Shown: positions 27,731-47,769 of the stretch, in pieces | Position numbering within the stretch: the first letter of the stretch is position 1 | Layout: every line of letters begins with the position of its first letter | Origin: an uncultured Planctomycetia bacterium | Lineage (GTDB): Bacteria; Omnitrophota; Gorgyraeia; 2-02-FULL-51-18 | Length of the DNA: 64,000 bases | NCBI GenBank assembly: GCA_964402785.1 | Contig: CAYODQ010000002.1 | Coordinates: forward strand, 5,763 to 69,762 | Direction of reading: 5' to 3' | Program-made: the position numbers and the translations under genes | Notes under the pieces: model-generated | What the model was told of the DNA's origin: nothing | The model's database searches: none | The model's input: the letters and a program-made list of their open reading frames with translations, nothing else

Positions 27731-28690
27731 TTATACGATCCCGGCTCTTAAAATATCCTGTACGTCCAGAAGTCCGATCGGCCGCCTTTTTTTATCCACC
27801 ACAGGAACCTCATCGATCTTTTTGCTGCGCAGAAGATCCAGCGCTTCGGCAGCCAAATGGTCACCCGCAATAGCGATCGGATCGGCGGTCATCACACGCT
27901 TGACCGGCTCATCCAGAATACGCTGACCTTCTTTGAGGCGACGCCTTAGATCACCATCCGTGAAGATGCCGACCAATTTACCCTTGCTATCTATCACCGT
28001 AGCCGAGCCGGCACGGGCATCTGTGATCTTGTACAGAACATGCTTCAACTTCATATCGTCTCGAACGATCGGATTGGCTTTGCCTGTGCGCATGATGTCA
28101 GAAACCTTGAGAAGAAGTTTTTTTCCTAAACTCCCTCCGGGATGATAAAACGCAAAATCTTCTGCACGAAAACCTTTTTTCTTAAGAAGTGAGACGGCTA
28201 GCGCATCCCCCAAAACAAGCATCGCGGTCGTAGAGGCTGTCGGCGCCAAATTGTGCGGACACGCCTCTTTTTTGACGCTGACATCCAGCACAGCGTCGCT
28301 ATATTTAGCCAAAAGAGATTTGGTGTTGCCGGTAAAAGCGATCAGCTTGCATCCAATTTTTTTTATGAGAGGAAGCATCTTGATGATCTCTTCGGTTTGA
28401 CCGCTGTTAGAGATTGCAACGACCACATCATCTTTTGTGACGCGGCCCAGATCGCCATGCAGAGCTTCGGCGGGATGCATAAAAAGAGAGGGCGTGCCTG
28501 TTGAAGAAAGTGTAGCGGATATTTTTTGGGCGATGAAACCAGGCTTTCCGATGCCTGTCATCACTACGCGGCCTCTGGACTTTAAAATAATTTCACAGGC
28601 ATTTTCAAAATCACGGCCAACGCGAGACAAAAGAGCCGTGATGGCGTCACGCTCGATCCTGATCACTTGTTTGGCTGTTTCAGCGATCAT
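27731..28690 (-). CDS. kdsD: arabinose-5-phosphate isomerase (SIS + tandem CBS domains)
   Basis: SIS domain (GRVVMTGIGKPGFIAQK) followed by CBS pairs. kds gene neighbourhood. Confidence 0.85.
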   Translation of the reverse strand: MIAETAKQVIRIERDAITALLSRVGRDFENACEIILKSRGRVVMTGIGKPGFIAQKISATLSSTGTPSLFMHPAEALHGDLGRVTKDDVVVAISNSGQTEEIIKMLPLIKKIGCKLIAFTGNTKSLLAKYSDAVLDVSVKKEACPHNLAPTASTTAMLVLGDALAVSLLKKKGFRAEDFAFYHPGGSLGKKLLLKVSDIMRTGKANPIVRDDMKLKHVLYKITDARAGSATVIDSKGKLVGIFTDGDLRRRLKEGQRILDEPVKRVMTADPIAIAGDHLAAEALDLLRSKKIDEVPVVDKKRRPIGLLDVQDILRAGIV

Positions 28691-29558
28691 GTCGGACGAT
28701 CTCGCTCAGTTTAAGCAGCCTCGTCAGGAGCTTTTCGAGCTCGGAAAGCTTGACCATATTAGGCCCGTCGCTTGGCGCATGATCTGGATCTTCGTGAACC
28801 TCCATAAAAACACCGTCCACACCGGCCACCACTCCCGCTTGGGCCAATGTCGGCACAAAGCGCCTATCTCCACCTGAGCTGGTGCCGCGACCGCCCGGCT
28901 GCTGAACCGAATGCGTGGCATCAAAAATAACCGGATAGCCGTATTCACGCATGATCGGGATCGACCTAAAATCATTCACCAAAGTGTTGTAACCAAAAAA
29001 TGTGCCTCGCTCCGTAAGCATCACCCTAGAATTTCCGGTCGACGCCACCTTATCGGCGACATTTCCCATCTCCCAGGGCGCTAAAAATTGGCCCTTTTTG
29101 ACATTGACCACTTTTCCTGTGTGGCCGGCGGCTAAAAGAAGATCTGTTTGGCGGCATAAAAATGCAGGGATCTGAAGCACGTCGGCAACTTTTGCTGCAG
29201 CCCGCGCTTCCTCGGGACTATGGACGTCAGTAAGAATCGGCAGCCCTGTCTCTTTTTTGACCGTAGCCAAAATAGACATGCCATCTTGTAAGCCTAGGCC
29301 CCTAAACGAAGACATGGAGCTGCGATTGGCTTTATCGTAACTGGATTTATAGATCAAGGGCATCTTGAGGCGTTTTGTGATCTTCTGGATGGCTTTGGCA
29401 TGGCGGATGGCACTTTTTTCATTTTCGACCACACACGGACCGGCAATCAAAACCAAAGGATGTTGTCCGCCAATCAAAATATTGGCCAATTTGACGATTT
29501 TTTGTTCGGAGTTTGGAGTTCGGAGTTCGGAGGTTTTATTTTTTTTAATACTTTTCAT
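28680..29558 (-). CDS. kdsA: 2-dehydro-3-deoxyphosphooctonate aldolase (Kdo8P synthase)
   Basis: QKIVKLANILIGGQHPLVLIAGPCVVEN aligns to the E. coli KdsA N-terminus. The first ~18 codons (MKSIKKNKTSELRTPNSE) are encoded by the repeat hairpin, and the ATG sits in the hairpin loop. Confidence 0.85.
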   Translation of the reverse strand: MKSIKKNKTSELRTPNSEQKIVKLANILIGGQHPLVLIAGPCVVENEKSAIRHAKAIQKITKRLKMPLIYKSSYDKANRSSMSSFRGLGLQDGMSILATVKKETGLPILTDVHSPEEARAAAKVADVLQIPAFLCRQTDLLLAAGHTGKVVNVKKGQFLAPWEMGNVADKVASTGNSRVMLTERGTFFGYNTLVNDFRSIPIMREYGYPVIFDATHSVQQPGGRGTSSGGDRRFVPTLAQAGVVAGVDGVFMEVHEDPDHAPSDGPNMVKLSELEKLLTRLLKLSEIVRHDR

Positions 29559-29602: not shown

Positions 29603-31958
<2,356 letters not shown>

Positions 31959-31965
31959 CGCTCCT

Positions 31966-33015
31966 TCATTTATGTTGGCCAGGCTGAGTCTTGATCAGAT
32001 CCGATTTACGCCGGCGAGGCTGCTGAGTCTCATTGGCAATGCGCTGCGAAAGCTCTTCTTGATTAGTGACGGCGACACCGATCTTACCGACCACGATACC
32101 GGCAGCACAATTTGAAATATGAGCTGCATCAATAATATTCGCTCCTCCGGCTAGCGCCAACGTCAAAGCGCTGATCACCGTATCCCCGGCACCAGACACG
32201 TCAAAAACTTCCTGAGCCACGGTTGGAATTTTCACAGTTTCCTTGCGCGGACGAAAGATTGCCATACCATTTTCTCCGCGTGTAATGATCAAGCTTTGGG
32301 AGCGAAGCTTTTTGAGCATAAGCTGCCCTGCTTTTTCAAGCGTGGCATCATCTTTGATCTTAAACCCAACAGCCGCACCCGCTTCATGGTGATTGGGTGT
32401 CAGAGTGGTAACGCCATTGTAGTAAGAAAAATGAGTCTCTTTTGGATCCACCGTGATCACCTTTTTGTGCTTCTTGGCGATACGCACTGCCTCACTCACG
32501 AGTTTTGGTACGATCACACCTTTGCCATAATCTTCGATGATGAGCGCATCCACTTCCGGCAATTTTTTGCGGATAAATTCTTGGATCTGATCCTGTATAG
32601 AATCCGCGATCGGCTTCACAAGCTCGCGGTCGATACGAACCACTTGCTGATGATGTGCGATCACGCGTGTTTTTTGAGTCGTGGGACGTGATTTATCGGC
32701 CACGATGCCATCACAATGCACACCTCTTTTTTGAAGCACGCTCCTTAAAACTTCGCCGCGCGAATCGTCACCAACCACACCCGCCAAATAAACTTGTCCA
32801 CCCAAAGTGCTGATGTTGTACGCCACATTGGATGCTCCTCCCGGCATAAAATTTTCAGAATTGACCCACACAACCGGCACGGGAGCTTCGGGCGAAATGC
32901 GAGAAACATTGCCCCAAATAAATTCATCCAAGATCAGATCGCCGACGACCAAAACCTTGGATTTGTTAAAATTGGAAATGATATGCTTCCAACGTGCTAA
33001 GTCATTATGTTCCAT
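31966..33015 (-). CDS. hldE: D-glycero-beta-D-manno-heptose-7-phosphate kinase (RfaE/HldE domain I only)
   Basis: [31 protein letters not shown] aligns closely with the E. coli HldE N-terminus ([31 protein letters not shown]). At 349 aa it covers the kinase domain only, with no adenylyltransferase domain. Confidence 0.8.
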   Translation of the reverse strand: [349 protein letters not shown]

Positions 33016-33638: not shown

Positions 33639-34463
33639 TTATTTTTTGGATTGAGATTTAATAACGCCATTAATAGGGTCGAAGGGCGTTTTGAGCATGC
33701 TCCACTCGCGGATACGCTTTTCGTCGGCGGATAAATAGATCCAAACTCTTCCCCGGCTATACAAAACACCCTTCAAACTTGTCCTGGGCTCAACGAGAAT
33801 GGTGTCCACACTCCCCCGACCTTTCAACTCTTTCGATTCTCTCTTTAGCACCTGTATCTCCAAGTCATGGTCTTTTTCTTCACTGGAAACAACGGTGTGC
33901 ACCGCTTTGCCTACTTGAAGATCTTGCCTGCGCACCCAGAAAAAAGCCGATATGACATCGTGCACAAATCCGCCGATCTCAAACTCTTTTTTTTCGCCGT
34001 TCTTAAGCGATTCGTAATAGCCCTTTTTATTAGATGGATCAAAAACCGTCTTTTCGTCCGCTCGGTACCGCCCCTCACTTAGTTTTTTTTGGAATTCCAG
34101 CGGATACAGATCGTCAACCGCAATAAAGCTATGCAGCTCATCTTGGACCGGGTATATCGTCGACAACACTTCGTTGGTCCTTGCGATCGCGACCACATGG
34201 TAAGCTTCTCGCCCAAGATGTTGGATCTTTTCCTTCACCCACAACTCTCCGTAACCCACGGGGACGCCCATCCAAGAAACTTCGTACAACAAATGCTCGC
34301 CCAACTCCATACGAGCATTCGGCTTTGACAGGGGGGGTAATTTCTTCGGTGTTTTTGCTGCAAAATTATTCTGCGCGATCGCTGGCATTGAACCGCACAG
34401 GATCGTCATCAATAAAACCAAAATCAAATATTTAACGTTGGTAAGTTGCAGATTTTTTTTCAT
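33639..34463 (-). CDS. secreted DUF3108-family protein (unknown function) at the start of the LPS-core cluster
   Basis: Signal peptide MKKNLQLTNVKYLILVLLMTILCGSMPAIA. YEVSWMGVPVGYGELW is a DUF3108-like motif. No homolog of known function recognised. Confidence 0.5.
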   Translation of the reverse strand: MKKNLQLTNVKYLILVLLMTILCGSMPAIAQNNFAAKTPKKLPPLSKPNARMELGEHLLYEVSWMGVPVGYGELWVKEKIQHLGREAYHVVAIARTNEVLSTIYPVQDELHSFIAVDDLYPLEFQKKLSEGRYRADEKTVFDPSNKKGYYESLKNGEKKEFEIGGFVHDVISAFFWVRRQDLQVGKAVHTVVSSEEKDHDLEIQVLKRESKELKGRGSVDTILVEPRTSLKGVLYSRGRVWIYLSADEKRIREWSMLKTPFDPINGVIKSQSKK

Positions 34464-36435
34464 GCTGTCTAGTCAGGATTGTCGCCAAGCTCTGGTACAC
34501 CTCTTCCACCCGGATCGCTTTTAGGCATTCAAAATCGATCGTGCATGCATGAGCCAAACAGACCACACATCCAATATCTTTATGCAAAACGCGGTGCGAC
34601 GCACCCAGCGGTTGCCAGCGGCGAGCGCCAAGCCCGGCTTGATTGCGTCCAAAAATACTGACAACCGGCGTACCAACAGCTGCGGCCACATGCACCGGGC
34701 CCGAATCATTTGAAACTAGAGCATCGCATACAGATAAGAACGCTGTCAGTTCATTTAAATTTTGACGGCCCGTCCAGTCCTGTACCCTCTCATCAAAACC
34801 CTTGGAAAGATAGGCTCCCAGCGAAACCTCATCCTCGCCACCAATAATCGCAACGCGGTGCGAATGGAACGCCAGGATACTTTCGATCAAGCGGCGGTAA
34901 TTTTCTTTGGGCCATCGCTTTGAAGGGCAGCTGGCGCCGGCGTGAATCGCGATCACCCCTTCTCGCTTAGCCAAATCCACTCGGGTCTCCGGAAAAAGCA
35001 GCTTATCCGGCATTTGAGTTGGGCGCGGCACACCAAACGCCTCGACCAAGTGCAAAGCATACTCAGATTCATGCTCCAAGCCCAGATGTCTTTTGTCAGG
35101 CATCGCGTGAGTGAGCAAAAAAGATAGGTTATTTTGATATCCGATCCGATATGGAATAGCTGATAAAAATGGGATCAAATAGGAACGTATCCCCGGATGC
35201 ATCACAAATGCTGCGTCAAACGATCGTCTTCTTATTTCTCGAATAAACCGGCTATAACCCCATGGAAACGTATGCGCTCCGCCCTTTTTGTAATCATAAA
35301 CCAGGACTTCATCGATCCAAGGATGCTCCCGCAAAAGATCCTGCGTGTAAGGCCGCGTCATGACCGTGATATGCGCATCGGGATGCTGTTGACGAAGTGC
35401 ATAGATAGATGGCAGCGTCAGCACCAGATCTCCAACACGATCCAATCGCATCACCAAAAACCTCAACCCCTGGCCTCTCAATCGATCCTCCAGGATCTGA
35501 GACGCTTTGTGATAAACAGTTTCTACGGATAAGTTGCTGAGGCACTCATGGCCATAGCGACATTGAGCTTTTTCGCATGGGGAACAAAAGATCTTGAGAG
35601 ATAAAGAAGCGCTGCCTTTTGTCCTGGGGCCGTACTTTGCCGGGTCCGTGGGCCCAAATAATGCCAGCACCGGAACTTTGAGCGCATCCGCGATATGAAG
35701 TGGCGCACTATCATTGGTGATGACGAGCTTTGCACGACGGACCAGACTTACTAATTCCAAGAAAGTCGTCTCGCCGCAAACATTTAAAGCCGCTTGCTTC
35801 ATGGATGAGCGAACACGTTCGGCGTCTTTTGCATCAGCCTTATCCCCCACCAATACGATCTGAAATCCTTTTTCATGGGCAAGCCGATCCAGAAGCTGAG
35901 CGTAATGAACTGCTGGCCATTTTTTAATATCGCTCTTGGAGCCTACGGCGGCAATGATCGTGGGCTTGTCTCTATCCAGCATTGGACGAGTAGAATCATT
36001 CGGTGATCTCCGCTCCAACCATCTTTGCTCCACCGGAAAAAGAGAAACAAGTCCTTTCAAAGAAGCCAGGTGTTTTTCACCGCGATGAGCGCCTTTGGAT
36101 CGAGTAATATAAGAATTACGATAACGTGCTCCTGAAAGCAAGCCGATCAAAGAACGCCGAAGATCGATCACAAGATCATAGCGCTCGTTGCGGATCGACT
36201 GAATAAACGCCCATTTCTGCTGAAAAGGTGCTCGTTTATTGAACACCCGAAACTGATCGATGCGCGGATCCCCTTCAAAAACGATCTTCCCGGATTCTCC
36301 CGCGATCACATCCAATTTCGCTTCAGGAAATGACAATTTCAATTGCTCAAACACCGGAAGCGTCAACACCACATCTCCTAAATTTGAAAGTGTGACGACC
36401 AAGATCTTTTGGATCGAGCTTTTGTCGGTGATCAT
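34432..36435 (-). CDS. tandem family-9 glycosyltransferase (two heptosyltransferase domains fused)
   Basis: Two complete GT9 units, each with an N-terminal LSNLGDVVLTLP / RVGDLVLTLP motif and a C-terminal NDSAPLHIA / NDSGPVHVAAA motif. 667 aa. Confidence 0.75.
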   Translation of the reverse strand: MITDKSSIQKILVVTLSNLGDVVLTLPVFEQLKLSFPEAKLDVIAGESGKIVFEGDPRIDQFRVFNKRAPFQQKWAFIQSIRNERYDLVIDLRRSLIGLLSGARYRNSYITRSKGAHRGEKHLASLKGLVSLFPVEQRWLERRSPNDSTRPMLDRDKPTIIAAVGSKSDIKKWPAVHYAQLLDRLAHEKGFQIVLVGDKADAKDAERVRSSMKQAALNVCGETTFLELVSLVRRAKLVITNDSAPLHIADALKVPVLALFGPTDPAKYGPRTKGSASLSLKIFCSPCEKAQCRYGHECLSNLSVETVYHKASQILEDRLRGQGLRFLVMRLDRVGDLVLTLPSIYALRQQHPDAHITVMTRPYTQDLLREHPWIDEVLVYDYKKGGAHTFPWGYSRFIREIRRRSFDAAFVMHPGIRSYLIPFLSAIPYRIGYQNNLSFLLTHAMPDKRHLGLEHESEYALHLVEAFGVPRPTQMPDKLLFPETRVDLAKREGVIAIHAGASCPSKRWPKENYRRLIESILAFHSHRVAIIGGEDEVSLGAYLSKGFDERVQDWTGRQNLNELTAFLSVCDALVSNDSGPVHVAAAVGTPVVSIFGRNQAGLGARRWQPLGASHRVLHKDIGCVVCLAHACTIDFECLKAIRVEEVYQSLATILTRQHEKKSATYQR

Positions 36436-37475
36436 CGGCTCAGCTCCAGTGTTTTTTCATAAACTTGCTCAGGTGAGATCGATCGCATACAAAGATGGTC
36501 GCTGCAAGATTGAAAATAACACGGCAGTTCACATCCGACTCGGGATTGAAAAGTAAATAACGCGCCGGAGGAAACAGGACCTGTCAAAGCAGCGGACGTG
36601 GGCCCAAATAGCGCCACAATGGGCGTCTTTTGAGTTGCCGCCAAATGAACCGGCCCCGAGTCATTGGACAGCATGACTTGAGCCCCCTTCAAAAGCCAGG
36701 CCAATTCATCCAAAGATGTTTGCCCGCACAACGAGATCAGCCTGGGATCCCGGACAGATTCGATGAGGAGTTTTGCCAACTCCATCTCCGAAACGGTCCC
36801 GCAGATCACGACATGCCCCGTATTTTTGCTCAGCCAAAGCTGTGTCCACTTCGCAAAAGACTGGATCGCCCACCGCTTAAGATGCCAGTTGCCACCAATA
36901 TGAATGACGGCATACGAAGAGCTTGCGGACAAACCCGCCTTGCCGCATTTACTCTGCAATCGCTCAAAAGCTCCTGCATCCGGAAAAAAATCCATTTGGC
37001 GTCCCCGAGACGGGATCCCCAGCGCTTGCGAAAGATGCAAAAAATGATCGATCTTATGCAAAGCCTGATCAGGCGGCGCTACCGCATGAGTCATAGATGT
37101 TTTTTTGTCAGGCGCCTGATATCCTGCGCGAATAGCAATGCCCGACATTTTCAAAAGGAACGATCTGGATTTTGACGGCGTCAGCAAAATAGCGGCGTCA
37201 TAGCGCTCTCCTCGCAAACGGCGAACCAAAACCAACGCCTGCCATAAAGATCCCAAATGAATGCGCTCGTTATAAACCAACGAATTGCGGACGTTGGGAT
37301 TATGCTTCAGGACACCCTCAACACGATGAGGCAATAAAACGTCCATCTCGCAATCCGGGTAGGCTTGCTTAAAAGCTCTTAAAAATGGCGTGGCAAAAAG
37401 AACATCCCCCAACCAATTTGGACAAACAACCAAAACGCGCTTTAAATCTTTCGGAAGCGCTGCAGACATGATCAA
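36432..37475 (-). CDS. family-9 glycosyltransferase (LPS heptosyltransferase, WaaC/WaaF-like)
   Basis: VLVVCPNWLGDVLFATP N-terminus and LSNDSGPVHLAA C-terminal motif. Confidence 0.75.
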   Translation of the reverse strand: MIMSAALPKDLKRVLVVCPNWLGDVLFATPFLRAFKQAYPDCEMDVLLPHRVEGVLKHNPNVRNSLVYNERIHLGSLWQALVLVRRLRGERYDAAILLTPSKSRSFLLKMSGIAIRAGYQAPDKKTSMTHAVAPPDQALHKIDHFLHLSQALGIPSRGRQMDFFPDAGAFERLQSKCGKAGLSASSSYAVIHIGGNWHLKRWAIQSFAKWTQLWLSKNTGHVVICGTVSEMELAKLLIESVRDPRLISLCGQTSLDELAWLLKGAQVMLSNDSGPVHLAATQKTPIVALFGPTSAALTGPVSSGALFTFQSRVGCELPCYFQSCSDHLCMRSISPEQVYEKTLELSR

Positions 37476-38275
37476 GAATCCATGGAAGGGCTGACACTCT
37501 GCTGGCCACCCTTATAAGACACACGCTTTTTTCCTAGGTGATAAATACCGGAGACTTTGGCCCAAAAACTAAACAGCCCGTTCGAATTATTGACCTTGAT
37601 GCGATGCAGACCATAAAAATCATGAGGCACTTTTCCGTAATTGGTCGTCACAGCACCTTCATATCCACTTGACTGAACCAAAGCCCTCACTTCAGGAGTG
37701 GTGCCTCCTGCGGGAAAACTGAAAAGCGTGACAGGATGACCCAAAATACTTTCAAGTTTCACCTTTGATGCGGTCAACTCGTTCTTTATTTGCTCTTCGG
37801 AGCATTTAGGCAAAAAAGCGTGGGATAATGTATGACTGCCAATGGTGACGCCGGATTCATCCATGATCTGAAGCTGCTTTGATGTCAGCCACCCCGCCTT
37901 GCCGATATTGTCCGTGATCATAAAGATAGTGGCTGGTAAACCTAGCTTTTTTAGGATAGGAAATGCATTGTTATAATTATCCACCGTCCCATCGTCAAAC
38001 GTAATACACACGGTCTTAGGCTTGATCTTTCTGCCTGCCTTTAATTCCTCCACCACTTTAGACAAGGGCTCGACATGATAACGGTGTGTTTTTAAGAACT
38101 GCATCTGTCGCTCGAAAGATTCGGGTGTGACCGTTGGTGACTTGATCTTGGGGTTGGCGTAATCGACAATGTGATACATGAGAATAGGGGTCTCAAAAAA
38201 ATAAGCGCGGGCAGCTTGGAAAAGGATCCAAGCGCAAATTAAAACAAGAACGAGGCCTTTGTACCGCCGGGTCAA
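37472..38275 (-). CDS. polysaccharide deacetylase (NodB homology domain), membrane-anchored
   Basis: N-terminal TM helix. ILMYHIV and CITFDDGTVDNY NodB motifs. Confidence 0.7.
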   Translation of the reverse strand: MTRRYKGLVLVLICAWILFQAARAYFFETPILMYHIVDYANPKIKSPTVTPESFERQMQFLKTHRYHVEPLSKVVEELKAGRKIKPKTVCITFDDGTVDNYNNAFPILKKLGLPATIFMITDNIGKAGWLTSKQLQIMDESGVTIGSHTLSHAFLPKCSEEQIKNELTASKVKLESILGHPVTLFSFPAGGTTPEVRALVQSSGYEGAVTTNYGKVPHDFYGLHRIKVNNSNGLFSFWAKVSGIYHLGKKRVSYKGGQQSVSPSMDS

Positions 38276-40395
38276 ACCAGGCTCTCCGATAACGATACGC
38301 CGGATGGACGCTTGTTATTGATGAGATGAAGGACGGCATCCAACACTTCCTGCACACTGATCTTCTTCATACACGGATGGCCGATCGGACAGCTTCTGAG
38401 ATAACAAGGGCTGCACTGAAGCTCTTTCCAAAACACCTGATGATGTGAGGGCGGCATCAAGTGTCTTTTAGGATCAGTGGGCCCGAAAATAGCCACAAGC
38501 GGTATATCCAAGCTGGATGCGATATGCATTGGAGCCGAATCAGAGCTGATAAACACCTGACAACGCCTGATCAGCGCCGTGAGCTCTGTGATCGTCGTTT
38601 TTCCGACAGCATTCACCGGCTTGTTGCGTGTTTGCGATAAAAGCTCGTCCGCCAGCGCCTGCTCTTCGTGAGAACCCGTGATCACCACGCGAATATTTCT
38701 CCTCGCCAACTCATCGCAAAGCTTGGCGTAATTTTCCACAGGCCAAAGCTTGGTCGGCCATCGCGGAGACGATCCCGGATTGATCCCGACCAGGATCTGG
38801 CTGGGAGAAACCCACTGGGACTCCAAAAATTTTCCGATCTTCTCATCCTCACTCTTTTCCGTCCATATCTCAAGCTGCTTTGAGGATGGCTCGACTCCGA
38901 TAAGCTTCAGGACCTGAAATTGATGATCGATAGGAGAAATTGTTGAAAAATCGCCCTCTGCGCGCCGGTTAAGAAAAAAAGACCATTTGCGATTTTTGTG
39001 CCCCGCGCGCACCCGGGCACCGCAGAAAAATGAAAAGAAATGACTCAGTCGATTGTTTTGAAGATCGATAGCAATATCAAAATCCTCGCCAGCCAACAAC
39101 CGGGCCATCCGAAGCGCCGATCGCCATTTGTGCTTCATACTCTCTTCATAGACCATCACATCATCCACATACGGACAATTACGAATGATCTTTCTCGATT
39201 TTCTTCCAACAAGGACCGTGATCCAGGCTTTGGGATATTTTTCACGCAACGCCCTAAGAGAAGGAATACTGAGTATCACATCCCCAAGCGCACTCAACTT
39301 GATGACCAATATTTTTTTTCGGGAAAGCGCTTCTTCGTATACCTTGAGCTTCTTCTCAAACATCATGGGAAGATCATACTCAGCCTCGACTTTGGCGCGC
39401 AAAGATTGGGCTAGGTTTTTGGCCAGAGATTCGTCTTTGAGTATCCTCAACACGGCGTCCGCCAATTCGCGCGGATCCTCGGGACCCACCAATAATCCGT
39501 CTTTTTCGTGCTCAATGATATCCACCAAGCCACCCATGCGCGTCGCCACCACAGGGACACCGCAAGCGCCTGCCTCGATCACGACACGCCCAAAAGCCTC
39601 TTCGCCCACCGACGGCGCCACCAAAACCGACATCTTACTCAAAAGCTCTGGAATATTATATCGGGTCCCCATGAACTGAACTGCCTGCGAAAGCCCAAGG
39701 TTACGCGTGAGCATCAAAAGCTCTTCTTTGTATTGTGGTTTGGGCGCATCTCCAATGATCTGGATCTTGATATGCGGATAAACTCGCACGACCCGTGCCA
39801 TGGCTTTCAAAAAAAGTGGGTGTCCCTTGATCGGTGTCAGCCTCCCCACCAAACCGATCACCACTTCCTTTGTTGCTGCCAGTTTTTCAGCGTCGCGCAA
39901 TTTAAACTCTTCCAAATTGACACCACGCGGGATCATGCGGATCTTTTCGTGAGGTACACCAAAGTCATCTCGCATGCGCTTCCCAATAATATGGCTAGCG
40001 ACAATCACGTATTTGCCCCAACCCATCGGACGGCTTAAAAGGTGTTTACTATAAAAACCGTGGCTCGTTGTCACGAACGGAACCTGAGTGTAGCGGCTCA
40101 CAAAATAAGCGATCAGGGCGGGAACGCGGCTGCGGGCATGGATCACATCGATACCCTCCATGCGAACGATTTTGATCAATGCTTTTACGGAGGCGATGAT
40201 AGAAAAAACTGATTTTTTATGCACCGGAAGCGCATAATGCGTGACACCCGCTGACACGAGCTCGCCAACCAGAGGGCCCCCAGCTGAAACCACCACAGCC
40301 TTATAGCCTTTACGTTTTAAATACTTCGCCAGATCGACCGACCCGCGTTCAACCCCGCCTGATTTGAGCTCTGGCAATATCTGAAGCACGACCAT
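38272..40395 (-). CDS. GT4 glycosyltransferase fused to a C-terminal GT9 heptosyltransferase domain
   Basis: N-terminal ~370 aa carries the GT4 EX7E motif (EEAFGRVVIEAGACGVPVVATRMGG). C-terminal ~330 aa is a GT9 domain (ILVIKLSALGDVILSIP ... SSDSAPMHIASS). Confidence 0.75.
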   Translation of the reverse strand: MVVLQILPELKSGGVERGSVDLAKYLKRKGYKAVVVSAGGPLVGELVSAGVTHYALPVHKKSVFSIIASVKALIKIVRMEGIDVIHARSRVPALIAYFVSRYTQVPFVTTSHGFYSKHLLSRPMGWGKYVIVASHIIGKRMRDDFGVPHEKIRMIPRGVNLEEFKLRDAEKLAATKEVVIGLVGRLTPIKGHPLFLKAMARVVRVYPHIKIQIIGDAPKPQYKEELLMLTRNLGLSQAVQFMGTRYNIPELLSKMSVLVAPSVGEEAFGRVVIEAGACGVPVVATRMGGLVDIIEHEKDGLLVGPEDPRELADAVLRILKDESLAKNLAQSLRAKVEAEYDLPMMFEKKLKVYEEALSRKKILVIKLSALGDVILSIPSLRALREKYPKAWITVLVGRKSRKIIRNCPYVDDVMVYEESMKHKWRSALRMARLLAGEDFDIAIDLQNNRLSHFFSFFCGARVRAGHKNRKWSFFLNRRAEGDFSTISPIDHQFQVLKLIGVEPSSKQLEIWTEKSEDEKIGKFLESQWVSPSQILVGINPGSSPRWPTKLWPVENYAKLCDELARRNIRVVITGSHEEQALADELLSQTRNKPVNAVGKTTITELTALIRRCQVFISSDSAPMHIASSLDIPLVAIFGPTDPKRHLMPPSHHQVFWKELQCSPCYLRSCPIGHPCMKKISVQEVLDAVLHLINNKRPSGVSLSESLV

Positions 40396-40397
40396 AT

Positions 40398-42365
40398 CTA
40401 CATGATCCTTTGCGCCACGTTATGCAATACATCTTCTTGACGCCGCCGATACTCCCAGTCTGGGGCGCCAGACCGCTGAGACAACGACATCATCTGATCT
40501 AAAAATTGCTCGGAACGACCCCGCACGATCTTCCCTTCGCGCTCCAATCGATCCAAATATTCTTCGTATTTGGGTTTCGTGGATGTCCCTGCCTGCCAAG
40601 GTTCTATCACCAACACAAGTTTTCCGGCCATCACCGCTTCCGAGATCATCGACATGGACTCACCTGTTACGATCACCCAATCCGACAATCCCAATATAGC
40701 ACTCACGCCGCCCTGACGATTGGCTTCATTGGCGATCAAAAGATATGGACACACCCGCTTATCCAGAAAAAAATGCTTCATCACCTGCTCGGCCCAGGCT
40801 GGCGTTCGGCGCGAACTGGTCGCGATCACCTCAACACCCTGCCTTAGACTGAACTGATGCAGCATTTGCATCCACTTTTCAAACAGCGCCAGCTGAAACT
40901 GGATTTTAGTGGTATCTCCGCCAACAAGCAATCCAATTTTCTTCGCGTGCCCGCCCAAAGACAGCTCCGCGCGTAGTTTTTGCGATTCCCTTGAGAGATC
41001 TTCTTGTCGCATGGCAGAAAGCGCTCCATCCGTCACGAATACACGGTCGCTGGACATGGCTTTATCGTGTTTCGGAAGAATGATAGCATCGAACAGCTCG
41101 TGCGACGTGCTGGGCTTCATGATCAAAACGGATTTTGCTTTATTTTCTTTTTTGATCCAAATATTCACATCTTGAAGCGACGAGCCGCAAGAAATAACAA
41201 TATCCGCATACGCACGCCTCATCTGGCGATAGCAATCAGGTTTCAATGCAGCCTTGAGCCACAGAGTCCTAAATGGGATGTGTCCCCGACAAAGAATGCT
41301 CAGCGCGCGCAAGCCCCCTCTAAAAAACTCGTTCCTGAATTGGATCTGAAGCTCTTCACAAAAAAGCCTGTCGGCTGTTCCTTGCGGCTCACGCATGCGT
41401 CGCATCGCATCCACAACCGCCATGGATTGATGCACATGCCCGGCTCGCCCATCACTCAACACCAGGATCTTTTTGTCGGGCGACGATTTCCAGCGCCGAT
41501 GACCCCAAAGCCACTGATGAGGAGATCTTCGGATCTTCTCTTCAAGGGTATCTGCAAATTGCTGCAAAATAAAACTCTCGGCGTCATCCGGCGCTGCATC
41601 TGCCGGAGGCATCTTAAGGGCATCGCCCACTTCGATGAAGTGCTTCTCGCCTTTTTGCCTAAAAATAAAAACGGGGAAAATGGGTGCGCCGGTTCTCATG
41701 GAAAAAGCGGCAACGCCTGGAGGGGTTGATGAGAGTCTGTCAAAAAGATGAACGAATCGCCCTTTCTTTCCGCCATCCTGGTCGCTCAAAATGGCCACGA
41801 TCTTGCCTTCGTGCAAGGATTTTAAGATCTGGCGAACCATGATCCCTTTGTAAATGACCTGGCTGCCTTTGGATTCACGCAACTTGTTCAAATAGGCATC
41901 CGATCGTGGGTGCTTTTGCAATCTCGCCAAAGCCACCAGCGGCATCCCCATCAAGCTGCCGGCAATATTCAGAAGCTCCCAACTGCCAAAATGGCCGGTC
42001 AAAAAAATGACGCCTTTTTTTTGCCTCAAAGCTTCTTCGTATTTCTCGCGGCCTTCGATCGTAAAATGTTCTTGGATATATTTAAGATCCATATCCGGGA
42101 CCCTGAGCAGATCCACGGCATTCATGGCTAAGTTCTGAAAAGATCGCTCGGCTATTCTTTTGAGTTCTTTGGGTGAATAGGCTTCACCCAGAGCCATCTT
42201 GAGATTGCGATAAGCAATGGCGCCGCGCTTGGAAAAAATAAACACAAGCGTCCCCACCCCGCGCGCAAAAGCGAGCGAAAAACTAAAAGGAAGCCAGCGG
42301 ACTAAAGCTCGCCCAGCTTGGACGACTTTAAGAATTAAGGCATCTTCTAATAAAGTCTTCTTCAT
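40398..42365 (-). CDS. lipid A late acyltransferase (LpxL/HtrB-like LPLAT) fused to an ELM1/DUF1022-like domain
   Basis: N-terminal ~300 aa has the LGHFGSWELL acyltransferase motif and a PIFPVFI region. C-terminal ~350 aa starts ILVLSDGRAGHVHQSM, matching the conserved start of bacterial ELM1/DUF1022 proteins. Confidence 0.65.
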   Translation of the reverse strand: MKKTLLEDALILKVVQAGRALVRWLPFSFSLAFARGVGTLVFIFSKRGAIAYRNLKMALGEAYSPKELKRIAERSFQNLAMNAVDLLRVPDMDLKYIQEHFTIEGREKYEEALRQKKGVIFLTGHFGSWELLNIAGSLMGMPLVALARLQKHPRSDAYLNKLRESKGSQVIYKGIMVRQILKSLHEGKIVAILSDQDGGKKGRFVHLFDRLSSTPPGVAAFSMRTGAPIFPVFIFRQKGEKHFIEVGDALKMPPADAAPDDAESFILQQFADTLEEKIRRSPHQWLWGHRRWKSSPDKKILVLSDGRAGHVHQSMAVVDAMRRMREPQGTADRLFCEELQIQFRNEFFRGGLRALSILCRGHIPFRTLWLKAALKPDCYRQMRRAYADIVISCGSSLQDVNIWIKKENKAKSVLIMKPSTSHELFDAIILPKHDKAMSSDRVFVTDGALSAMRQEDLSRESQKLRAELSLGGHAKKIGLLVGGDTTKIQFQLALFEKWMQMLHQFSLRQGVEVIATSSRRTPAWAEQVMKHFFLDKRVCPYLLIANEANRQGGVSAILGLSDWVIVTGESMSMISEAVMAGKLVLVIEPWQAGTSTKPKYEEYLDRLEREGKIVRGRSEQFLDQMMSLSQRSGAPDWEYRRRQEDVLHNVAQRIM

Positions 42366-43308
42366 CGCTCACTTCGAATTCAATTTCAAGTACCCAAAAA
42401 TTGACACTCTTAAGCTCATCCGCGCTCAATTTAGCCAACACAGGTTTAAGCCTGAAATAATCTTTTTCTGTTGTCACCACCTCTCGCAAACCCGTGAGCT
42501 GGCATTGTTTGATAAAATGCCTTATCTCCGAGATCTCATACTCGTGATGATCACCATATCTAGCCGCCAAAAGGATCTCGGCGCCCAAGAGCTCCACCAT
42601 TTTTTCAAACGAATAAGGATCGCCGATGCCGGAGATCGCTGCCAATTTACGCCCCCTAACCTCGCTGGTATTCCAGCTTCGATTTTTAAGCGGCTCAAAA
42701 AAACGCACGGGTTTGTGCATAGCCTCAAAAATGATAGCATTGGGCTTGATCGAATTTATTTTTTGCCGTATCCAATGCAAGTTCTTATGCCCGATATTGG
42801 CTTTGGTCAGCACAAAAATATCCGCGCGCCCCAGATTCTCCAGCGGTTCTCGCAGCGTCCCTCTCGGAATAAGACCGCCGGGACCAAACGGCTCTGTCGA
42901 GTTGAGCGTAATGATATCAAGGTCGCGATGCAACCTTAAATGCTGGAACCCGTCATCCAAGATCAAATAATTCACACCGTGCTTTTGGATCGCTTCCTGC
43001 GCGGTTTTGATACGGTCCCTACCCACTATGACCGGCACTCCAGGAAGCTTCTTTTCCAATTCCTTCACCTCATCCATGCTGTAACCGCGCGTTAAAACGG
43101 CGACCTTTTTACCCTCTTCTTTCAGCTCGCGCGCCAAACGCACCGTGAGCGGCGTTTTTCCATTGCCGCCCCAAGTGATATTTCCAACAGAAAGCACTCT
43201 TGCGTTCACTTTTTTGATCTTGTTTGGAAACCAGCGATAACTGGCATGCCACACCTTTATCACAAGCCGATAACCAGCGGCCAAAATCTTGGCTATTATT
43301 TTTTTCAT
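42328..43308 (-). CDS. lpxK: tetraacyldisaccharide 4'-kinase
   Basis: VLSVGNITWGGNGKTPLTVRLA P-loop characteristic of LpxK. Confidence 0.85.
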   Translation of the reverse strand: MKKIIAKILAAGYRLVIKVWHASYRWFPNKIKKVNARVLSVGNITWGGNGKTPLTVRLARELKEEGKKVAVLTRGYSMDEVKELEKKLPGVPVIVGRDRIKTAQEAIQKHGVNYLILDDGFQHLRLHRDLDIITLNSTEPFGPGGLIPRGTLREPLENLGRADIFVLTKANIGHKNLHWIRQKINSIKPNAIIFEAMHKPVRFFEPLKNRSWNTSEVRGRKLAAISGIGDPYSFEKMVELLGAEILLAARYGDHHEYEISEIRHFIKQCQLTGLREVVTTEKDYFRLKPVLAKLSADELKSVNFWVLEIEFEVSDEEDFIRRCLNS

Positions 43309-44621
43309 ACGTTTAACAGTCTCCTTCCAAGCGATTGTTCGAGAACCGATAGTACATAATCCAGGTTTTTTTGGGCAGCGCCTCGGTGGCGACCGATCAG
43401 ATCTTTTGCCGCCTCACCGATATCCATTCGTTTGCGTGCGTCACCTATCCATTCCACCAACTTTACTTCCAGCGCCTCTTTATCTTTCACACATACCGAC
43501 GCTTTTCCATTTTCAAACTCCTCGACCATAGACTTAAAATTTTGCATGTAAGGGCCGTACAAAACGGGCTTTCCAAAATAGGCCGGCTCGACCAAATTAT
43601 GCCCGCCGATGGGCACAAGGCTGCCGCCCATGAACACGGCATCGGATGCGGCGTAAAAATCGGATAAAACACCCATTTTATCGATCAAAAAAACAGCGGC
43701 CTCGCGATCATTTTCCGCCGAGGCTTCAAATCTCTTTGAATACCGCCGGACACCCAAACTCTTGTTAAGCGCTGTTTTCTCAATATCATCCGCCCGATCG
43801 ACATGCCGAGGCGCCAAAACAAGCCTGAGGTCATGCTGCTTTCGCAAGCGTGAATACACATCCAAAACGATCTCTTCTTCGCCCGGATGAGTACTAGCGC
43901 ATAGCCAGGTAAAAAGACCGTGTTCATCCGGCAGCTGCGCGCGATCCTTGTCGGAAATCTTCCATTCGTTGGGCGACCATTCAAATTTCAAATTCCCCGT
44001 CACCTGCACACGCGACTCATCAGCGCCCAACCGAACAAATCGATCTTTCATCGTATCGTCTTGGACGGCGATCCCGCTGAGCCTATTCAAGGAATGCTTT
44101 AGAAAGAATTTGGCCTTCAGATATTTTTTAAATGCGCGGTCTGAGATCCGGCCATTGACGATGAACGTTGGTATCCTTTTGGCGAATAAAACATCGATCA
44201 AGTTGGGCCAGATCTCGGTTTCAAACAAAAGCACCGTGGAGGGAGAGATTTTTTTGACAAATGCGGCAACCGCCCAACTCCAATCGATCGGAAAATAGCA
44301 AAGCGCATCGTCATCTGATTTGATCTTGGAAGCGACCTCATATCCTGTTACGGTCGTGGTCGTGAACAAAATCTTGGCTTCCGGCATGCGAAGCTTAAGC
44401 TGGGCGGCCCACCTCACAGCAAGCCCGATCTCGCCCACCGATACGGCATGCAGCCACACCACCTTGTGACCGGCGAGCTTATCCAAACAGTCTTTGGGGG
44501 GATTTCCAAAACGAGCAGAGGCACCTTTATTAGCCTTCCCCTTCAAAATAAAAATAGGTAAATAAAATAAAGAAAATATCGCGAAGCCGAAATTGTACAA
44601 AAACTTGGATAAAAAGATCAT
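43305..44621 (-). CDS. waaA: 3-deoxy-D-manno-octulosonic acid transferase (Kdo transferase)
   Basis: VWLHAVSVGEIGLAVRWAAQLK conserved N-terminal motif. 438 aa. Confidence 0.9.
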   Translation of the reverse strand: MIFLSKFLYNFGFAIFSLFYLPIFILKGKANKGASARFGNPPKDCLDKLAGHKVVWLHAVSVGEIGLAVRWAAQLKLRMPEAKILFTTTTVTGYEVASKIKSDDDALCYFPIDWSWAVAAFVKKISPSTVLLFETEIWPNLIDVLFAKRIPTFIVNGRISDRAFKKYLKAKFFLKHSLNRLSGIAVQDDTMKDRFVRLGADESRVQVTGNLKFEWSPNEWKISDKDRAQLPDEHGLFTWLCASTHPGEEEIVLDVYSRLRKQHDLRLVLAPRHVDRADDIEKTALNKSLGVRRYSKRFEASAENDREAAVFLIDKMGVLSDFYAASDAVFMGGSLVPIGGHNLVEPAYFGKPVLYGPYMQNFKSMVEEFENGKASVCVKDKEALEVKLVEWIGDARKRMDIGEAAKDLIGRHRGAAQKNLDYVLSVLEQSLGRRLLNV

Positions 44622-45501: not shown

Positions 45502-47769
45502 CTAAATATCGGAGAGATGTTTATCGTCTTCCGCGGGCCCTTGATCGTCAGCTTTGGGCGCTGCATCGGATCCCGGCTCAGCCGAATTCGCTGAGGGAAG
45601 TTTGTTGACGATATAGTTGCAATTGGGATAAGCCGTACACCCAAAAAAGGGCCGTCCGCGGCCTGACTTGGCGCGGCGCGCAACAAGCTTGCCCGTTTTG
45701 CATTGCGGGCAAACCACGTCGGTCGATATTGATTTTGCATTCTTGCACTCAGGCCACGCTGAGCAGCTCATGAAGCGGCCGCGGCGGCCCCATTTGATCA
45801 CCATGGGCTTGCCACATTTGTCACAGATCTCATCAGTGGGCTCAGCCACTTTCTTGACCGTTTGGATCTGGTCTTTGGCGGCCTCCATCTGCCCTTTAAA
45901 GACATCGTAAAAAGTGCGTACCACCTGCACCCAATTACAATGCCCTTCTTCGATCTCGTCCAACTGCTCTTCAAGTCCTGCGGTGAACTGAAAATCCATC
46001 ACCTTTTCAAAATGTTTCACCAAAATATCCACCACCAACATCCCAAGCTCCGTCGGCACCAAACTCCCGCCTTCTCTGCGGATATAATCGCGCCCCGTAA
46101 GCGTGGCGATGATCGGAGCATACGTCGAAGGGCGGCCGATCCCCTGTTCTTCCAGAGCCTTGACCAACGATGCATCCGTGAATCGCGCTGGCGGTTTTGT
46201 AAAATGCTGATGGTTTTGCAGATCCAAAAGGATCAAATTCTCCCCCACCTCAAGAGCAGGAAGCGGATTATCCTCATCTTCGCTGCGATCTGTGACGGCC
46301 AAAAAGCCAGGGAACTCCACACGGCTACCAGTGGAGCGAAAAATAAACTCGCCCGCTGCAATATCTGCCGTATCTTGCGCGATCAGCGCCGGCACCATCT
46401 GACTAGCCACCGTTTGCTCCCAGATCAGTGAATACAGCTTTTGTTGATCAGGCGTTAAGAAGGATTCGATCGACTTGGGATCTCTAGAAATAGCGCTGGG
46501 CCTAATAGCCTCATGTGCTTCCTGAGCTGCTTTTTTTGACTTATAAACATTGGGAGTACCCGGCAAATAATCCTTACCGAATTGTTTTGCAATGTAGTCA
46601 CGCGTCTCCTTGAGGGCTCCCTCCGAAATTCGCACTGAATCCGTACGCATGTAGGTGATTAAACCCACGCTGCCCTCGTCGGCAATCTCCACGCCTTCAT
46701 AAAGGGTTTGAGCCACCTTCATCGTTTTGGAGGCAGGGAAACGATATCGGTTATAAGCTGCCTGTTGTAATTTGCTGGTGGTGAACGGCGCCGACGGATT
46801 GCGCTTTTTCTTGAGATGCTTGACCTCCTTGACGATGAAGGGAGCATTTTTGGATGCCGCCAAAGCCTTATCGGCCACCCCTTTATCGGCCATCTCTATC
46901 TTTTTATCACCGATCTTTTCGAGATTGGCTTTGAAAGTACGCGTATCACCGCTCTTTTTTTTGAGATCCGCTTCGATGGACCAGTATTCTTCGGGTACAA
47001 ATGCCCGGATCTTTCTTTCCTGGTCGACGATGAGACGAAGCGCTACCGATTGCACGCGGCCGGCTGACAATCCACGGCCCACTTTCTGCCACAAAAGCGG
47101 GCTTAAACTATAACCCACGAGACGATCCAGCACGCGCCTTGCTTGCTGGGCGCCAATGAGATCCATGTTCAGATCATGCGGTTTTTTAAACGCCTCTAAA
47201 ATAGCGTCCTTCGTGATCTCATTGAACACCACTCGCCATACGGTTTTTCCTTTGCCGAGGGCTTCTTTCAAATGCCAGCTGATCGCTTCACCCTCACGGT
47301 CAGGGTCACAGGCCAGGTATATTTCTTTTTTAGATTTGGCTTTTTTCTTAAGCTCGCTGAGCGTTTTCTTCCTGTCTTTGACCACGATATACTTGGGCTC
47401 AAAATTATTCTCGATGTCGATGCCCATTTTACTTTTGGGAAGATCGATCACATGACCCATCGAAGCCGTCACTTCAAATCCGGAGCCTAGATATTTCTGG
47501 ATGGTCTTGCATTTGGCAGGAGACTCCACGATCACAAGCGCATGCGCTGGCGCTCCACCACCCACAAAATGCACAATCTCAATCTGGTCTCCCTCGCGCA
47601 CCGCCACATCCGAAAGACAGTCACGCGATACGATCTCAAGATTGTGTTCGACCACGACCTTTTCTTTCACGATCTTGAGCGCCTCTAAAAGCTGCAACAA
47701 ATTAATTCCTGAAGAAAATTCCCTCTTCTCTCCATTCAAAATAATATGAACCATAGATGCTGTGCTCAC
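45502..47769 (-). CDS. topA: DNA topoisomerase I with an in-frame N-terminal ThiS-like ubiquitin-fold extension
   Basis: TOPRIM start LVIVESPAKCKTIQKYLG and a catalytic Tyr region (SEGSVGLITYMRTDS). C-terminal Zn-ribbon repeats (CDKCGKPM..., CPQCKTGK...). The ORF starts at GTG 47769, overlapping the dprA TGA (GTGA). Confidence 0.85.
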   Translation of the reverse strand: MSTASMVHIILNGEKREFSSGINLLQLLEALKIVKEKVVVEHNLEIVSRDCLSDVAVREGDQIEIVHFVGGGAPAHALVIVESPAKCKTIQKYLGSGFEVTASMGHVIDLPKSKMGIDIENNFEPKYIVVKDRKKTLSELKKKAKSKKEIYLACDPDREGEAISWHLKEALGKGKTVWRVVFNEITKDAILEAFKKPHDLNMDLIGAQQARRVLDRLVGYSLSPLLWQKVGRGLSAGRVQSVALRLIVDQERKIRAFVPEEYWSIEADLKKKSGDTRTFKANLEKIGDKKIEMADKGVADKALAASKNAPFIVKEVKHLKKKRNPSAPFTTSKLQQAAYNRYRFPASKTMKVAQTLYEGVEIADEGSVGLITYMRTDSVRISEGALKETRDYIAKQFGKDYLPGTPNVYKSKKAAQEAHEAIRPSAISRDPKSIESFLTPDQQKLYSLIWEQTVASQMVPALIAQDTADIAAGEFIFRSTGSRVEFPGFLAVTDRSEDEDNPLPALEVGENLILLDLQNHQHFTKPPARFTDASLVKALEEQGIGRPSTYAPIIATLTGRDYIRREGGSLVPTELGMLVVDILVKHFEKVMDFQFTAGLEEQLDEIEEGHCNWVQVVRTFYDVFKGQMEAAKDQIQTVKKVAEPTDEICDKCGKPMVIKWGRRGRFMSCSAWPECKNAKSISTDVVCPQCKTGKLVARRAKSGRGRPFFGCTAYPNCNYIVNKLPSANSAEPGSDAAPKADDQGPAEDDKHLSDI
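47557..47754 (-). CDS. thiS: ThiS-like sulfur-carrier (beta-grasp) domain, no stop codon before the topA TOPRIM domain
   Basis: MVHIILNGEKREFSSGINLLQLLEALKIVKEKVVVEHNLEIVSRDCLSDVAVREGDQIEIVHFVGGG. The C-terminal IEIVHFVGGG matches the B. subtilis ThiS end exactly. Codons GGT GGT GGA are followed directly by GCG CCA GCG CAT GCG CTT GTG ATC GTG GAG. Confidence 0.6.

Follow-up and report, generated by a model that had tools for sequence, protein, structure and literature searches.

A single open reading frame joining an LpxL-type acyltransferase to a KdoT/ELM1-type glycosyltransferase domain in a lipid A/core operon of Omnitrophota

We analysed a 64-kb stretch of DNA (64,000 nucleotides, hereafter the window) taken from contig CAYODQ010000002.1 (positions 5,763 to 69,762, forward strand) of GenBank assembly GCA_964402785.1, deposited as an uncultured Planctomycetia bacterium and placed by GTDB in the Omnitrophota (Gorgyraeia, 2-02-FULL-51-18). 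On its minus strand, within a lipopolysaccharide (LPS) operon, the window carries a gene encoding both a late acyltransferase domain of the LpxL/LpxM family and a domain of the ELM1/GtrOC1/KdoT family of glycosyltransferases (GTs). The gene and the features inside it are given below, with the basis of each in brackets; amino acid (aa) positions refer to the encoded protein, and A1, A2 and A3 are sequence alignments, A1 comprising 78 fusion homologues.

40398..42365, minus strand: fusion gene, 655 aa, LpxL-type acyltransferase plus KdoT/ELM1-type GT-B glycosyltransferase (open reading frame, Pfam, AlphaFold2 model, alignment A1)
41481..42365, minus strand: LpxL/LpxM-family late acyltransferase domain, aa 1-295 (PF03279, NCBIfam, Foldseek, hydropathy)
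41976..41993, minus strand: HFGSWE, the HX4E catalytic dyad H125/E130, aa 125-130 (motif position and alignment A1)
40401..41480, minus strand: ELM1/GtrOC1/KdoT-family GT-B domain, aa 296-655 (PF06258, BLASTP, HHalign, domain model)
41436..41459, minus strand: LSDGRAGH motif, aa 303-310, in which D305/H310 correspond to KdoT D8/H13 (alignment with the primer-derived KdoT segment MHIVYVSDGKAGH)
41229..41327, minus strand: helical insertion of about 33 aa, aa 347-379 (alignment A2 columns 68-100, HHalign gap, domain model)
41064..41069, minus strand: H433-D434, corresponding to KdoT H109-D110 (invariant in A1, A2 and A3)
40803..40814, minus strand: S518-R519-R520-T521 (SRRT), corresponding to KdoT S178-T181, with R520 in the place of R180 (aligned with KdoT ILTTSRRTPAE; invariant in A1, A2 and A3)

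The gene is one ATG-start open reading frame (ORF) of 655 aa without an internal stop, as an earlier reading made from the letters alone (hereafter the sequence-only reading) had described it, and the Pfam search proposed there placed both domains well above their gathering cut-offs (22.3 bits for PF03279, 27 bits for PF06258). Lip_A_acyltrans (PF03279) matched aa 15-293 (E 9.2e-50, 169.9 bits; profile positions 19-294 of 295) and Mito_fiss_Elm1 (PF06258) matched aa 308-615 in the C-terminal half (E 1.3e-45, 156.3 bits). The HFGSWE motif and the segment ILVLSDGRAGHVHQSM were located where that reading had put them, at aa 125-130 and aa 300-315 respectively. About five residues separate the last conserved LpxL motif (QWLWGHRRWKS) from the first ELM1 strand (KILVLSDG), and the reading frame continues across the junction DNA (tgg aaa tcg tcg ccc gac aaa aag atc ctg gtg ttg agt gat ggg), which contains no stop, no sequence resembling a ribosome-binding site (RBS) and no internal start that could be used before the conserved D305/H310. 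GC content is uniform along the gene, and in the full-length AlphaFold2 (AF2) model (pLDDT 91.2, pTM 0.87) the junction is well ordered, without a disordered linker. The ATG lies within lpxK, so that the two genes overlap by 38 nt at the 3' end of lpxK, scans for promoters and terminators returned signals at chance level only, and the 64-kb window holds no second copy of LpxL or ELM1.

Searching with the whole protein yielded, from independent assemblies (NCBI, JGI, ENA and Logan), at least 120 homologues of about 650 aa with both Pfam domains; their identity to the window protein is 36-79%. Where named, almost all are assigned to 'Candidatus Omnitrophica/Omnitrophota', and NCBI gives several of the fusion homologues the name 'ELM1/GtrOC1 family putative glycosyltransferase'. 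We then used the C-terminal 360 aa alone as the query of an exhaustive HMMER search, which returned 2264 clusters (50% identity) at E ≤ 1e-3 and 173 at E ≤ 1e-30. Among the best 150 cluster representatives, 98 were full-length fusions (with the ELM1 match starting from about residue 295), 25 were N-truncated or partial, 18 were of standalone size and 9 were shorter fragments; some of the 'standalone' representatives are fragments of fusions cut at a contig edge, such as that of cluster P0144, which includes a 652-aa member. A scan of genome contigs, seeded on LpxL-domain motifs only, recovered the fusion at 10 of the 80 loci among the matches listed, a sampling that under-represents fusions and gives no taxonomic census; at these 10 independent loci, from Omnitrophota and from metagenome-assembled genomes (MAGs) labelled 'uncultured Planctomycetia', the tblastn matches pass directly from domain to domain without leaving the frame. 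The window itself apparently derives from a MAG, a setting in which sequencing or assembly errors do arise that join two neighbouring genes by a frameshift or a lost stop, and the identical protein was found on one NCBI contig only, of 118 kb. Against such an artefact, which the sequence-only reading had named as a possible refutation, stand the same continuous architecture in independent assemblies, its recurrence among the cluster representatives, the in-frame tblastn matches and the clean junction; the frameshift or chimera was rejected on these grounds, and we put its probability close to nil. The LpxL-ELM1 protein is a genuine single-ORF fusion.

The survey of other genomes that the sequence-only reading had called for gave a divided answer. 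Fusion of the two domains is common among the best C-domain matches, as counted above, but at the other 70 loci among the matches listed in the contig scan (Acidobacteriota, Nitrospirota and other phyla) LpxL is standalone and has no ELM1 gene within ±6 kb, so that LpxL-ELM1 adjacency is not general. The ELM1 domain also has a different fusion partner in two proteins, P0255 (L106:3438-5543) and P0137, of 701 and 718 aa, in which it is joined to LpxK. These carry the same 'long' type of ELM1 domain as the window protein, differing in that the partner is the 4'-kinase and not an acyltransferase; they occupy the equivalent operon position, are followed by the same GT4-GT9 gene and have no LpxL domain at the locus. 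In a rough neighbour-joining (NJ) tree their ELM1 domains fall within the LpxL-fused radiation, and they may derive from an overlapping lpxK/lpxL-ELM1 arrangement through loss of LpxL. A long branch separates KdoT from the 'long' ELM1 domains, which form a single clade; the tree is star-like and has no support values, and therefore allows no firm conclusion on the number of fusion and fission events. Genuinely standalone forms exist as well: a Deltaproteobacteria MAG (L005) encodes a long ELM1 protein with a GT4-GT9 gene directly after it, and at another locus (L006) methyltransferase genes and a GT2 gene surround a standalone ELM1 gene, in a glycan cluster that is unrelated. An ELM1 domain that seemed truncated in a complete Omnitrophota chromosome (L034) proved to be so in appearance only, owing to a masked run of N. 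Four of the MAGs bearing the fusion (L030, L031, L032 and L035) are labelled 'uncultured Planctomycetia' and one homologue (P0067) 'Candidatus Eisenbacteria', so either the fusion reaches beyond the Omnitrophota or these bins are mislabelled.

The N-terminal domain is, on sequence grounds, a secondary acyltransferase of the PF03279 family with predicted activity, because all its NCBIfam matches are models for LpxL, LpxP or LpxM, and because it has an invariant HX4E motif and shares its fold with LpxM and PatA. The best NCBIfam match was LpxL (PRK08419/NF006270, 154.8 bits), and H125, G127, W129 and E130 are invariant across A1. Foldseek matched the N-terminal half of the model to A. baumannii LpxM (5KNK/5KN7, E 1e-13, TMt 0.69) and to mycobacterial PatA (5F2T and others, TMt 0.82-0.87). 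A moderately hydrophobic segment spans aa 25-44 (the most hydrophobic 19-mer, aa 25-43, scores 1.57 on the Kyte-Doolittle scale and includes an Arg), and the AF2 model has helices at aa 2-24 and 27-44. The domain thus resembles E. coli LpxL and A. baumannii LpxM in its PF03279 assignment, its HX4E dyad and its fold, but where the known enzymes have one domain and about 300 aa, the window protein adds a C-terminal glycosyltransferase. E. coli LpxL requires the moiety of two 3-deoxy-D-manno-oct-2-ulosonic acid (Kdo) residues, Kdo2, on lipid IVA, the same intermediate that KdoT uses.

For the C-terminal domain, the sequence-only reading had spoken of a GT-B-like fold of unknown biochemical function, and here its picture is outdated. 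VanOtterloo et al. (2024) reported that deletion of the ELM1-like gene A1S_2903 (GtrOC1) in A. baumannii truncates the core to Kdo2-lipid A (PMC10936431). In December 2025 the protein was renamed KdoT in the Journal of Biological Chemistry, where the purified enzyme was shown to be a CMP-Kdo:Kdo2-lipid IVA KdoIII transferase, sufficient alone in vitro (PMC12856342). According to the same study, KdoT is inactive on lipid IVA without Kdo, prefers the tetra-acylated Kdo2-lipid IVA over hexa-acylated lipid A and attaches KdoIII 2→5, onto O5 of KdoI; mutagenesis showed that the second Arg of the conserved SRRT (R180) is required for activity, and single mutations of candidate catalytic bases had no effect. 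The GT4 enzyme GnaT acts after KdoT, and KdoT needs GnaT in vivo for a reason left unexplained (PMC12856342). A Rickettsia homologue complemented the core defect of an Acinetobacter ΔkdoT strain and restored the outer-membrane barrier partially, the minimum inhibitory concentration (MIC) of vancomycin staying low (PMC12856342), and the function has therefore been kept over large distances. The sequence-only reading was right in assigning DUF1022/ELM1 a role in lipid A or the inner core, for which this direct biochemistry was already available.

In order to compare the window protein with KdoT, we translated fragments from the primer table of PMC12856342 and searched metagenome contigs with the N-terminal fragment as a degenerate DNA pattern. 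This recovered a reference of 296 aa (L022:2751-3638) that contains all four primer-derived fragments, matches A. baumannii ABO13309.2 exactly and itself matches PF06258 at E 9e-60. BLASTP of the window C-domain against A. baumannii KdoT gave 27% identity over 298 aa (E 7e-21), and HHalign, run with profiles of 27 'long' ELM1 domains and 11 Acinetobacter KdoTs, gave a probability of 99.8% (E 4.2e-28) and covered KdoT residues 2-269. By these sequence comparisons the C-terminal domain is a clear homologue of KdoT. The two have in common PF06258, the GT-B fold and the SDGxxGH, P.HD, SRRT and ES.SM.(S/F)EA motifs, and both are encoded near a polysaccharide deacetylase and further glycosyltransferases; the Kdo2-lipid IVA stage at which KdoT acts also fits a fusion to LpxL or LpxK. 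They differ in that KdoT is a standalone protein of 296 aa in an outer-core (OC) locus, on the ilvE side and not beside waaA/lpxK, whereas the window domain measures about 360 aa, includes a helical insertion of about 33 aa, extends further at its C-terminal end and is fused to an acyltransferase.

The ILVLSDGRAGH segment, which the sequence-only reading had called the hallmark start of the family, is indeed its hallmark motif and aligns with KdoT MHIVYVSDGKAGH; D305, G309 and H310 are invariant among the 78 fusion homologues. Across LpxL-fused, LpxK-fused, standalone and Acinetobacter forms, SRRT and the equivalents of KdoT D8, H109 and D110 are invariant, as is the C-terminal ES.SM..EA block, and the equivalent of H13 is nearly so (the exception is an Asn in the standalone L005 protein). 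The insertion lies in the acceptor-side, N-terminal Rossmann half and occurs in all 'long' ELM1 domains but not in Acinetobacter KdoT; in the domain-only AF2 model it forms helices H51-63, H71-78 and H81-89. That model (pLDDT 92.2) has the two-Rossmann GT-B fold, and its top Foldseek matches in the PDB are all GT-B (MshA, UrdGT2, MurG, WecB, GT9; probability 1.00, TM about 0.5), which bears out the GT-B-like fold expected from the sequence. A profile search of PDB sequences found no solved structure that is a sequence relative of the domain. The GT-B matches also include chains of about 500 residues from the Tetrahymena respiratory complex I/supercomplex (8b6f_A0, 8gym_T1 and 7tgh_T1, E about 3e-8); they point to a GT-B-like protein in a mitochondrial complex, a curious counterpart to the 'mitochondrial fission ELM1' family name. 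That name comes from plant ELM1 (Arabidopsis ELONGATED MITOCHONDRIA1), which, as cited in PMC10936431, is reported to be an adaptor for DRP3A at mitochondrial fission sites and not an LPS enzyme.

Multifunctional Kdo transferases of the WaaA type (KdtA, GT30) add Kdo from CMP-Kdo to lipid IVA or the inner core, and waaA lies two genes upstream of the fusion. The C-domain differs from them in lacking the GT30 signature PF04413, which was not found in the fusion protein and is present in the separate waaA gene; KdoT, moreover, cannot start Kdo addition on lipid IVA. In E. coli K-12 the addition of KdoIII depends on WaaZ, which belongs to an unrelated family.

The fusion gene belongs to a tightly packed, same-strand LPS super-operon that runs waaA, lpxK, [LpxL-ELM1], [GT4-GT9], polysaccharide deacetylase, GT9, [GT9-GT9], DUF3108, PfkB (HldE-kinase-like), KdsB, PyrG, KdsA, KdsD, KdsC, [LptC-LptA] and LptB. 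On the coding strand it is preceded by topA, xerC, waaA and lpxK; the placement immediately upstream of lpxK-waaA given in the sequence-only reading is thus reversed, the gene lying directly downstream of waaA-lpxK. The neighbouring genes are as follows, in order of transcription.

45502-47769, minus strand: topoisomerase I gene with an N-terminal ThiS/MoaD-like domain (PF02597)
43305..44621, minus strand: waaA (Kdo transferase, GT30), two genes upstream of the fusion, predicted to make the Kdo-lipid IVA acceptor (PF04413 E 2e-55; NF004388 321 bits)
42328..43308, minus strand: lpxK (lipid A 4'-kinase), directly upstream of the fusion (PF02606 E 8e-70; same arrangement in L001 and L003)
38272..40395, minus strand: GT4 + GT9 fusion protein, directly downstream of the fusion, its GT4 half a candidate GnaT-like partner (Pfam/NCBIfam)
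37472-38275, minus strand: polysaccharide deacetylase, in the core-oligosaccharide part of the operon, 34432..38275 (Pfam/NCBIfam)
36432-37475, minus strand: GT9, in the core-oligosaccharide part (Pfam/NCBIfam)
34432-36435, minus strand: GT9+GT9 fusion, in the core-oligosaccharide part (Pfam/NCBIfam)
33639-34463, minus strand: DUF3108 protein, between the heptosyltransferase genes and the HldE-like kinase
31966-33015, minus strand: HldE-kinase-like PfkB (Pfam)
31209-31958, minus strand: KdsB (Pfam)
29603-31216, minus strand: PyrG (Pfam)
28680-29558, minus strand: KdsA (Pfam)
27731-28690, minus strand: KdsD (Pfam)
27196-27726, minus strand: KdsC (Pfam)
26417-27229, minus strand: LptC+LptA-like fusion

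With KdsB, PyrG, KdsA, KdsD and KdsC all in the operon, the complete CMP-Kdo supply is co-operonic. Homologues with 51% and 39% identity (L001 and L003) lie in the same gene order, from dprA-topA-xerC-waaA through the GT9-GT9 gene, and a GT4(-GT9) gene directly follows the ELM1 domain in L001, L003, L005 and L106. What stays next to the long ELM1 domain across these contexts is therefore the GT4-GT9 gene, and the fused partner, LpxL or LpxK, varies with the lineage. The N-terminus of the window GT4-GT9 protein (MVVLQILPELKS) is identical to that of GnaT (MKVMQLLPELNS) at 7 of 12 positions in a comparison with primer-derived GnaT fragments, which also covered the generic EX7E motif; this is a lead only.

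Several further features of these loci deserve mention. A polysaccharide deacetylase gene lies one or two genes from ELM1 both in the Acinetobacter OC locus (kdoT, a glycosyltransferase of the PF13524 Glyco_trans_1_2 type and pda; L022:2751-7250) and in the window; there may be a conserved ELM1-GT-deacetylase module. At L005 (L005:2354-5541) the standalone ELM1 gene retains its GT4-GT9 neighbour. In all related loci examined (L001 and L003) DUF3108 keeps its place after the heptosyltransferase genes and before the HldE-like kinase. In the window, the Kdo-synthesis block also houses pyrG, flanked by kdsB and kdsA, an arrangement that looks as though the supply of CTP were regulated together with the formation of CMP-Kdo. 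Three further proteins of the operon are two-domain fusions (GT4+GT9, GT9+GT9 and the LptC+LptA-like protein), the first two of them conserved in related loci, and the lineage seems to fuse consecutive LPS enzymes systematically. The ThiS/MoaD-like ubiquitin-fold domain of topoisomerase I (PF02597, aa 9-72, E 1.4e-11) ends in GGG directly before the Toprim domain, and the ThiS-TopA fusion is annotated also in L001 and not in L003.

We propose, as the likely though by no means assured reading, that the protein is a membrane-associated bifunctional enzyme of late lipid A/inner-core assembly, combining acylation of the LpxL/LpxM type with Kdo addition like that of KdoT. The N-terminal domain would add an acyl chain to Kdo-lipid IVA via its HX4E active site, and the C-terminal inverting GT-B domain would most likely use CMP-Kdo to add a further Kdo to the Kdo2-lipid IVA made by WaaA, as KdoT does. 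Both domains would take the same lipid intermediate, the product of WaaA and LpxK encoded just upstream, and the GT4-GT9 protein encoded next would then extend the core. The fusion would bring acylation and inner-core Kdo extension together at the inner membrane in a fixed 1:1 stoichiometry; it is the linker of about five residues and the single compact body predicted for the protein that lead us to suggest that the two steps are both co-localised and coupled. The fact that KdoT acts on Kdo2-lipid IVA, with the tetra-acylated form preferred, matches the fusion to LpxL, and that to LpxK in P0255 and P0137. CMP-Kdo as the donor, the position on the acceptor, the sequence of the two reactions and any channelling of substrate are our inferences. 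The parts of the proposal differ in strength: that the C-domain is an active inner-core glycosyltransferase we regard as very probable, and that it is specifically a CMP-Kdo-dependent Kdo transferase as only somewhat better supported than its negation. As judged from sequence and models, the protein agrees with both families in profile, motif and fold, and departs from them only at the equivalog level of LpxL assignment and in lacking the short standalone architecture of the KdoT clade.

A number of observations weigh against this proposal, and several of them would also suit a C-domain that is an active inner-core glycosyltransferase of the ELM1 family other than a KdoIII→KdoI-O5 transferase. 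Such a domain would add a different sugar, or would place Kdo elsewhere or at another stage, whether as a Kdo onto KdoII or, should WaaA be monofunctional, as the second Kdo. Identity to the characterised KdoT is only 25-27%, and the insertion of about 33 aa in the acceptor-binding half, which KdoT does not have, means that acceptor specificity may differ from that of KdoT. The operon encodes five GT9 (heptosyltransferase-like) domains and the HldE-like kinase, which imply a heptose core competing for KdoI-O5. In LPS cores the O5 of KdoI is normally occupied by the first heptose, so the linkage made in Acinetobacter may not be available here; taken with the insertion, this gene content makes a different acceptor position plausible. 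We know of no LPS structure for this lineage. Foldseek singled out no WaaA or other Kdo transferase (WaaA is not in the top 50 matches), and some standalone relatives, such as that of L006, sit in glycan clusters unrelated to lipid A. On the other side, the motifs of the donor half, namely the ES.SM.SEA block and the SRRT that is proposed to hold the carboxylate of Kdo, do not vary, the CMP-Kdo pathway in the same operon is complete, and the complementation by the Rickettsia homologue, if partial for the barrier, shows the function kept over large distances. We therefore treat another transferase activity as a serious alternative, less likely than the KdoT-like one. A bolder form of the bifunctional proposal, which we think has at best a minority chance and offer as a conjecture, is that the protein is an obligate two-active-site unit that would hand Kdo2-lipid IVA from one site to the other, with the 'long' ELM1 domain making a linkage other than (2→5) to KdoI or using another donor.

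Doubt may also fall on the N-terminal domain, which stays under every NCBIfam equivalog cut-off (the best match, at 154.8 bits, compares with a cut-off of 248, and the remaining models are likewise below their own), so that the acyl chain and its position are not assignable. This, together with TM-scores to PatA that equal or exceed those to LpxM, would suit a PatA-like PF03279 member acylating another glycolipid, with the whole protein in a non-LPS pathway. Yet the best NCBIfam matches are all LpxL, LpxP or LpxM, the gene overlaps lpxK and comes after waaA in a conserved operon with Kdo-synthesis, heptosyltransferase and Lpt genes, and the characterised relative of the partner domain works on Kdo2-lipid IVA; we accordingly consider a PatA-like role improbable. 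Slightly less probable still is a non-catalytic ELM1 domain serving as a scaffold or adaptor, whose part would be just to tether or regulate the LpxL domain or to bring in the glycosyltransferase that acts next. Plant ELM1 offers a precedent, being described, as cited in PMC10936431, as an adaptor that recruits a dynamin-related protein, and the dependence of A. baumannii KdoT on GnaT in vivo and the lack of effect of mutating single candidate catalytic bases could be read in the same way. Such a role sits poorly with the catalytic sufficiency of KdoT alone in vitro, with donor-site motifs that are all invariant over about 100 divergent clusters, as expected of an enzyme, and with the intact two-Rossmann GT-B fold of the model.

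The bifunctional KdoT-like enzyme thus remains the reading that we favour. Since the activity of KdoT was shown in 2025, the fusion confirms and does not reveal the role of the family, and where the sequence-only reading had seen a handle on an uncharacterised family, it corroborates a known function instead. Our literature search found no discussion of an LpxL-ELM1 fusion (PMC10936431 and PMC12856342 mention no fusion proteins), nothing on DUF1022 and nothing relevant on Omnitrophota lipid A. Still new are the bifunctional architecture, present in databases under automatic names and discussed in no paper that we found; the fusion of LpxK to ELM1 as a parallel case; the reach of the KdoT family into Omnitrophota; a distinct 'long' ELM1 subfamily; and the conserved adjacency of ELM1 and GT4, which echoes the co-dependence of KdoT and GnaT.

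KdoT, a second Kdo transferase that works independently of WaaA, entered the literature only in 2024-2025, with Acinetobacter and Rickettsia as the sole organisms covered; the family to which it belongs turns up here in the lipid A/core operon of an uncultured phylum far removed from them. Its fusion to LpxL or LpxK is "Rosetta-stone" evidence from an independent side for the point in the pathway where KdoT works, matching the preference for a tetra-acylated acceptor in vitro, and provides a natural bifunctional protein for testing how lipid A acylation and core extension are coupled. If the protein were indeed a two-site unit with a different linkage or donor, it would represent a second, biochemically distinct branch of non-WaaA inner-core transferases, and with its conserved GT4 neighbour it could explain the co-dependence of KdoT and GnaT in vivo as a need for physical coupling.

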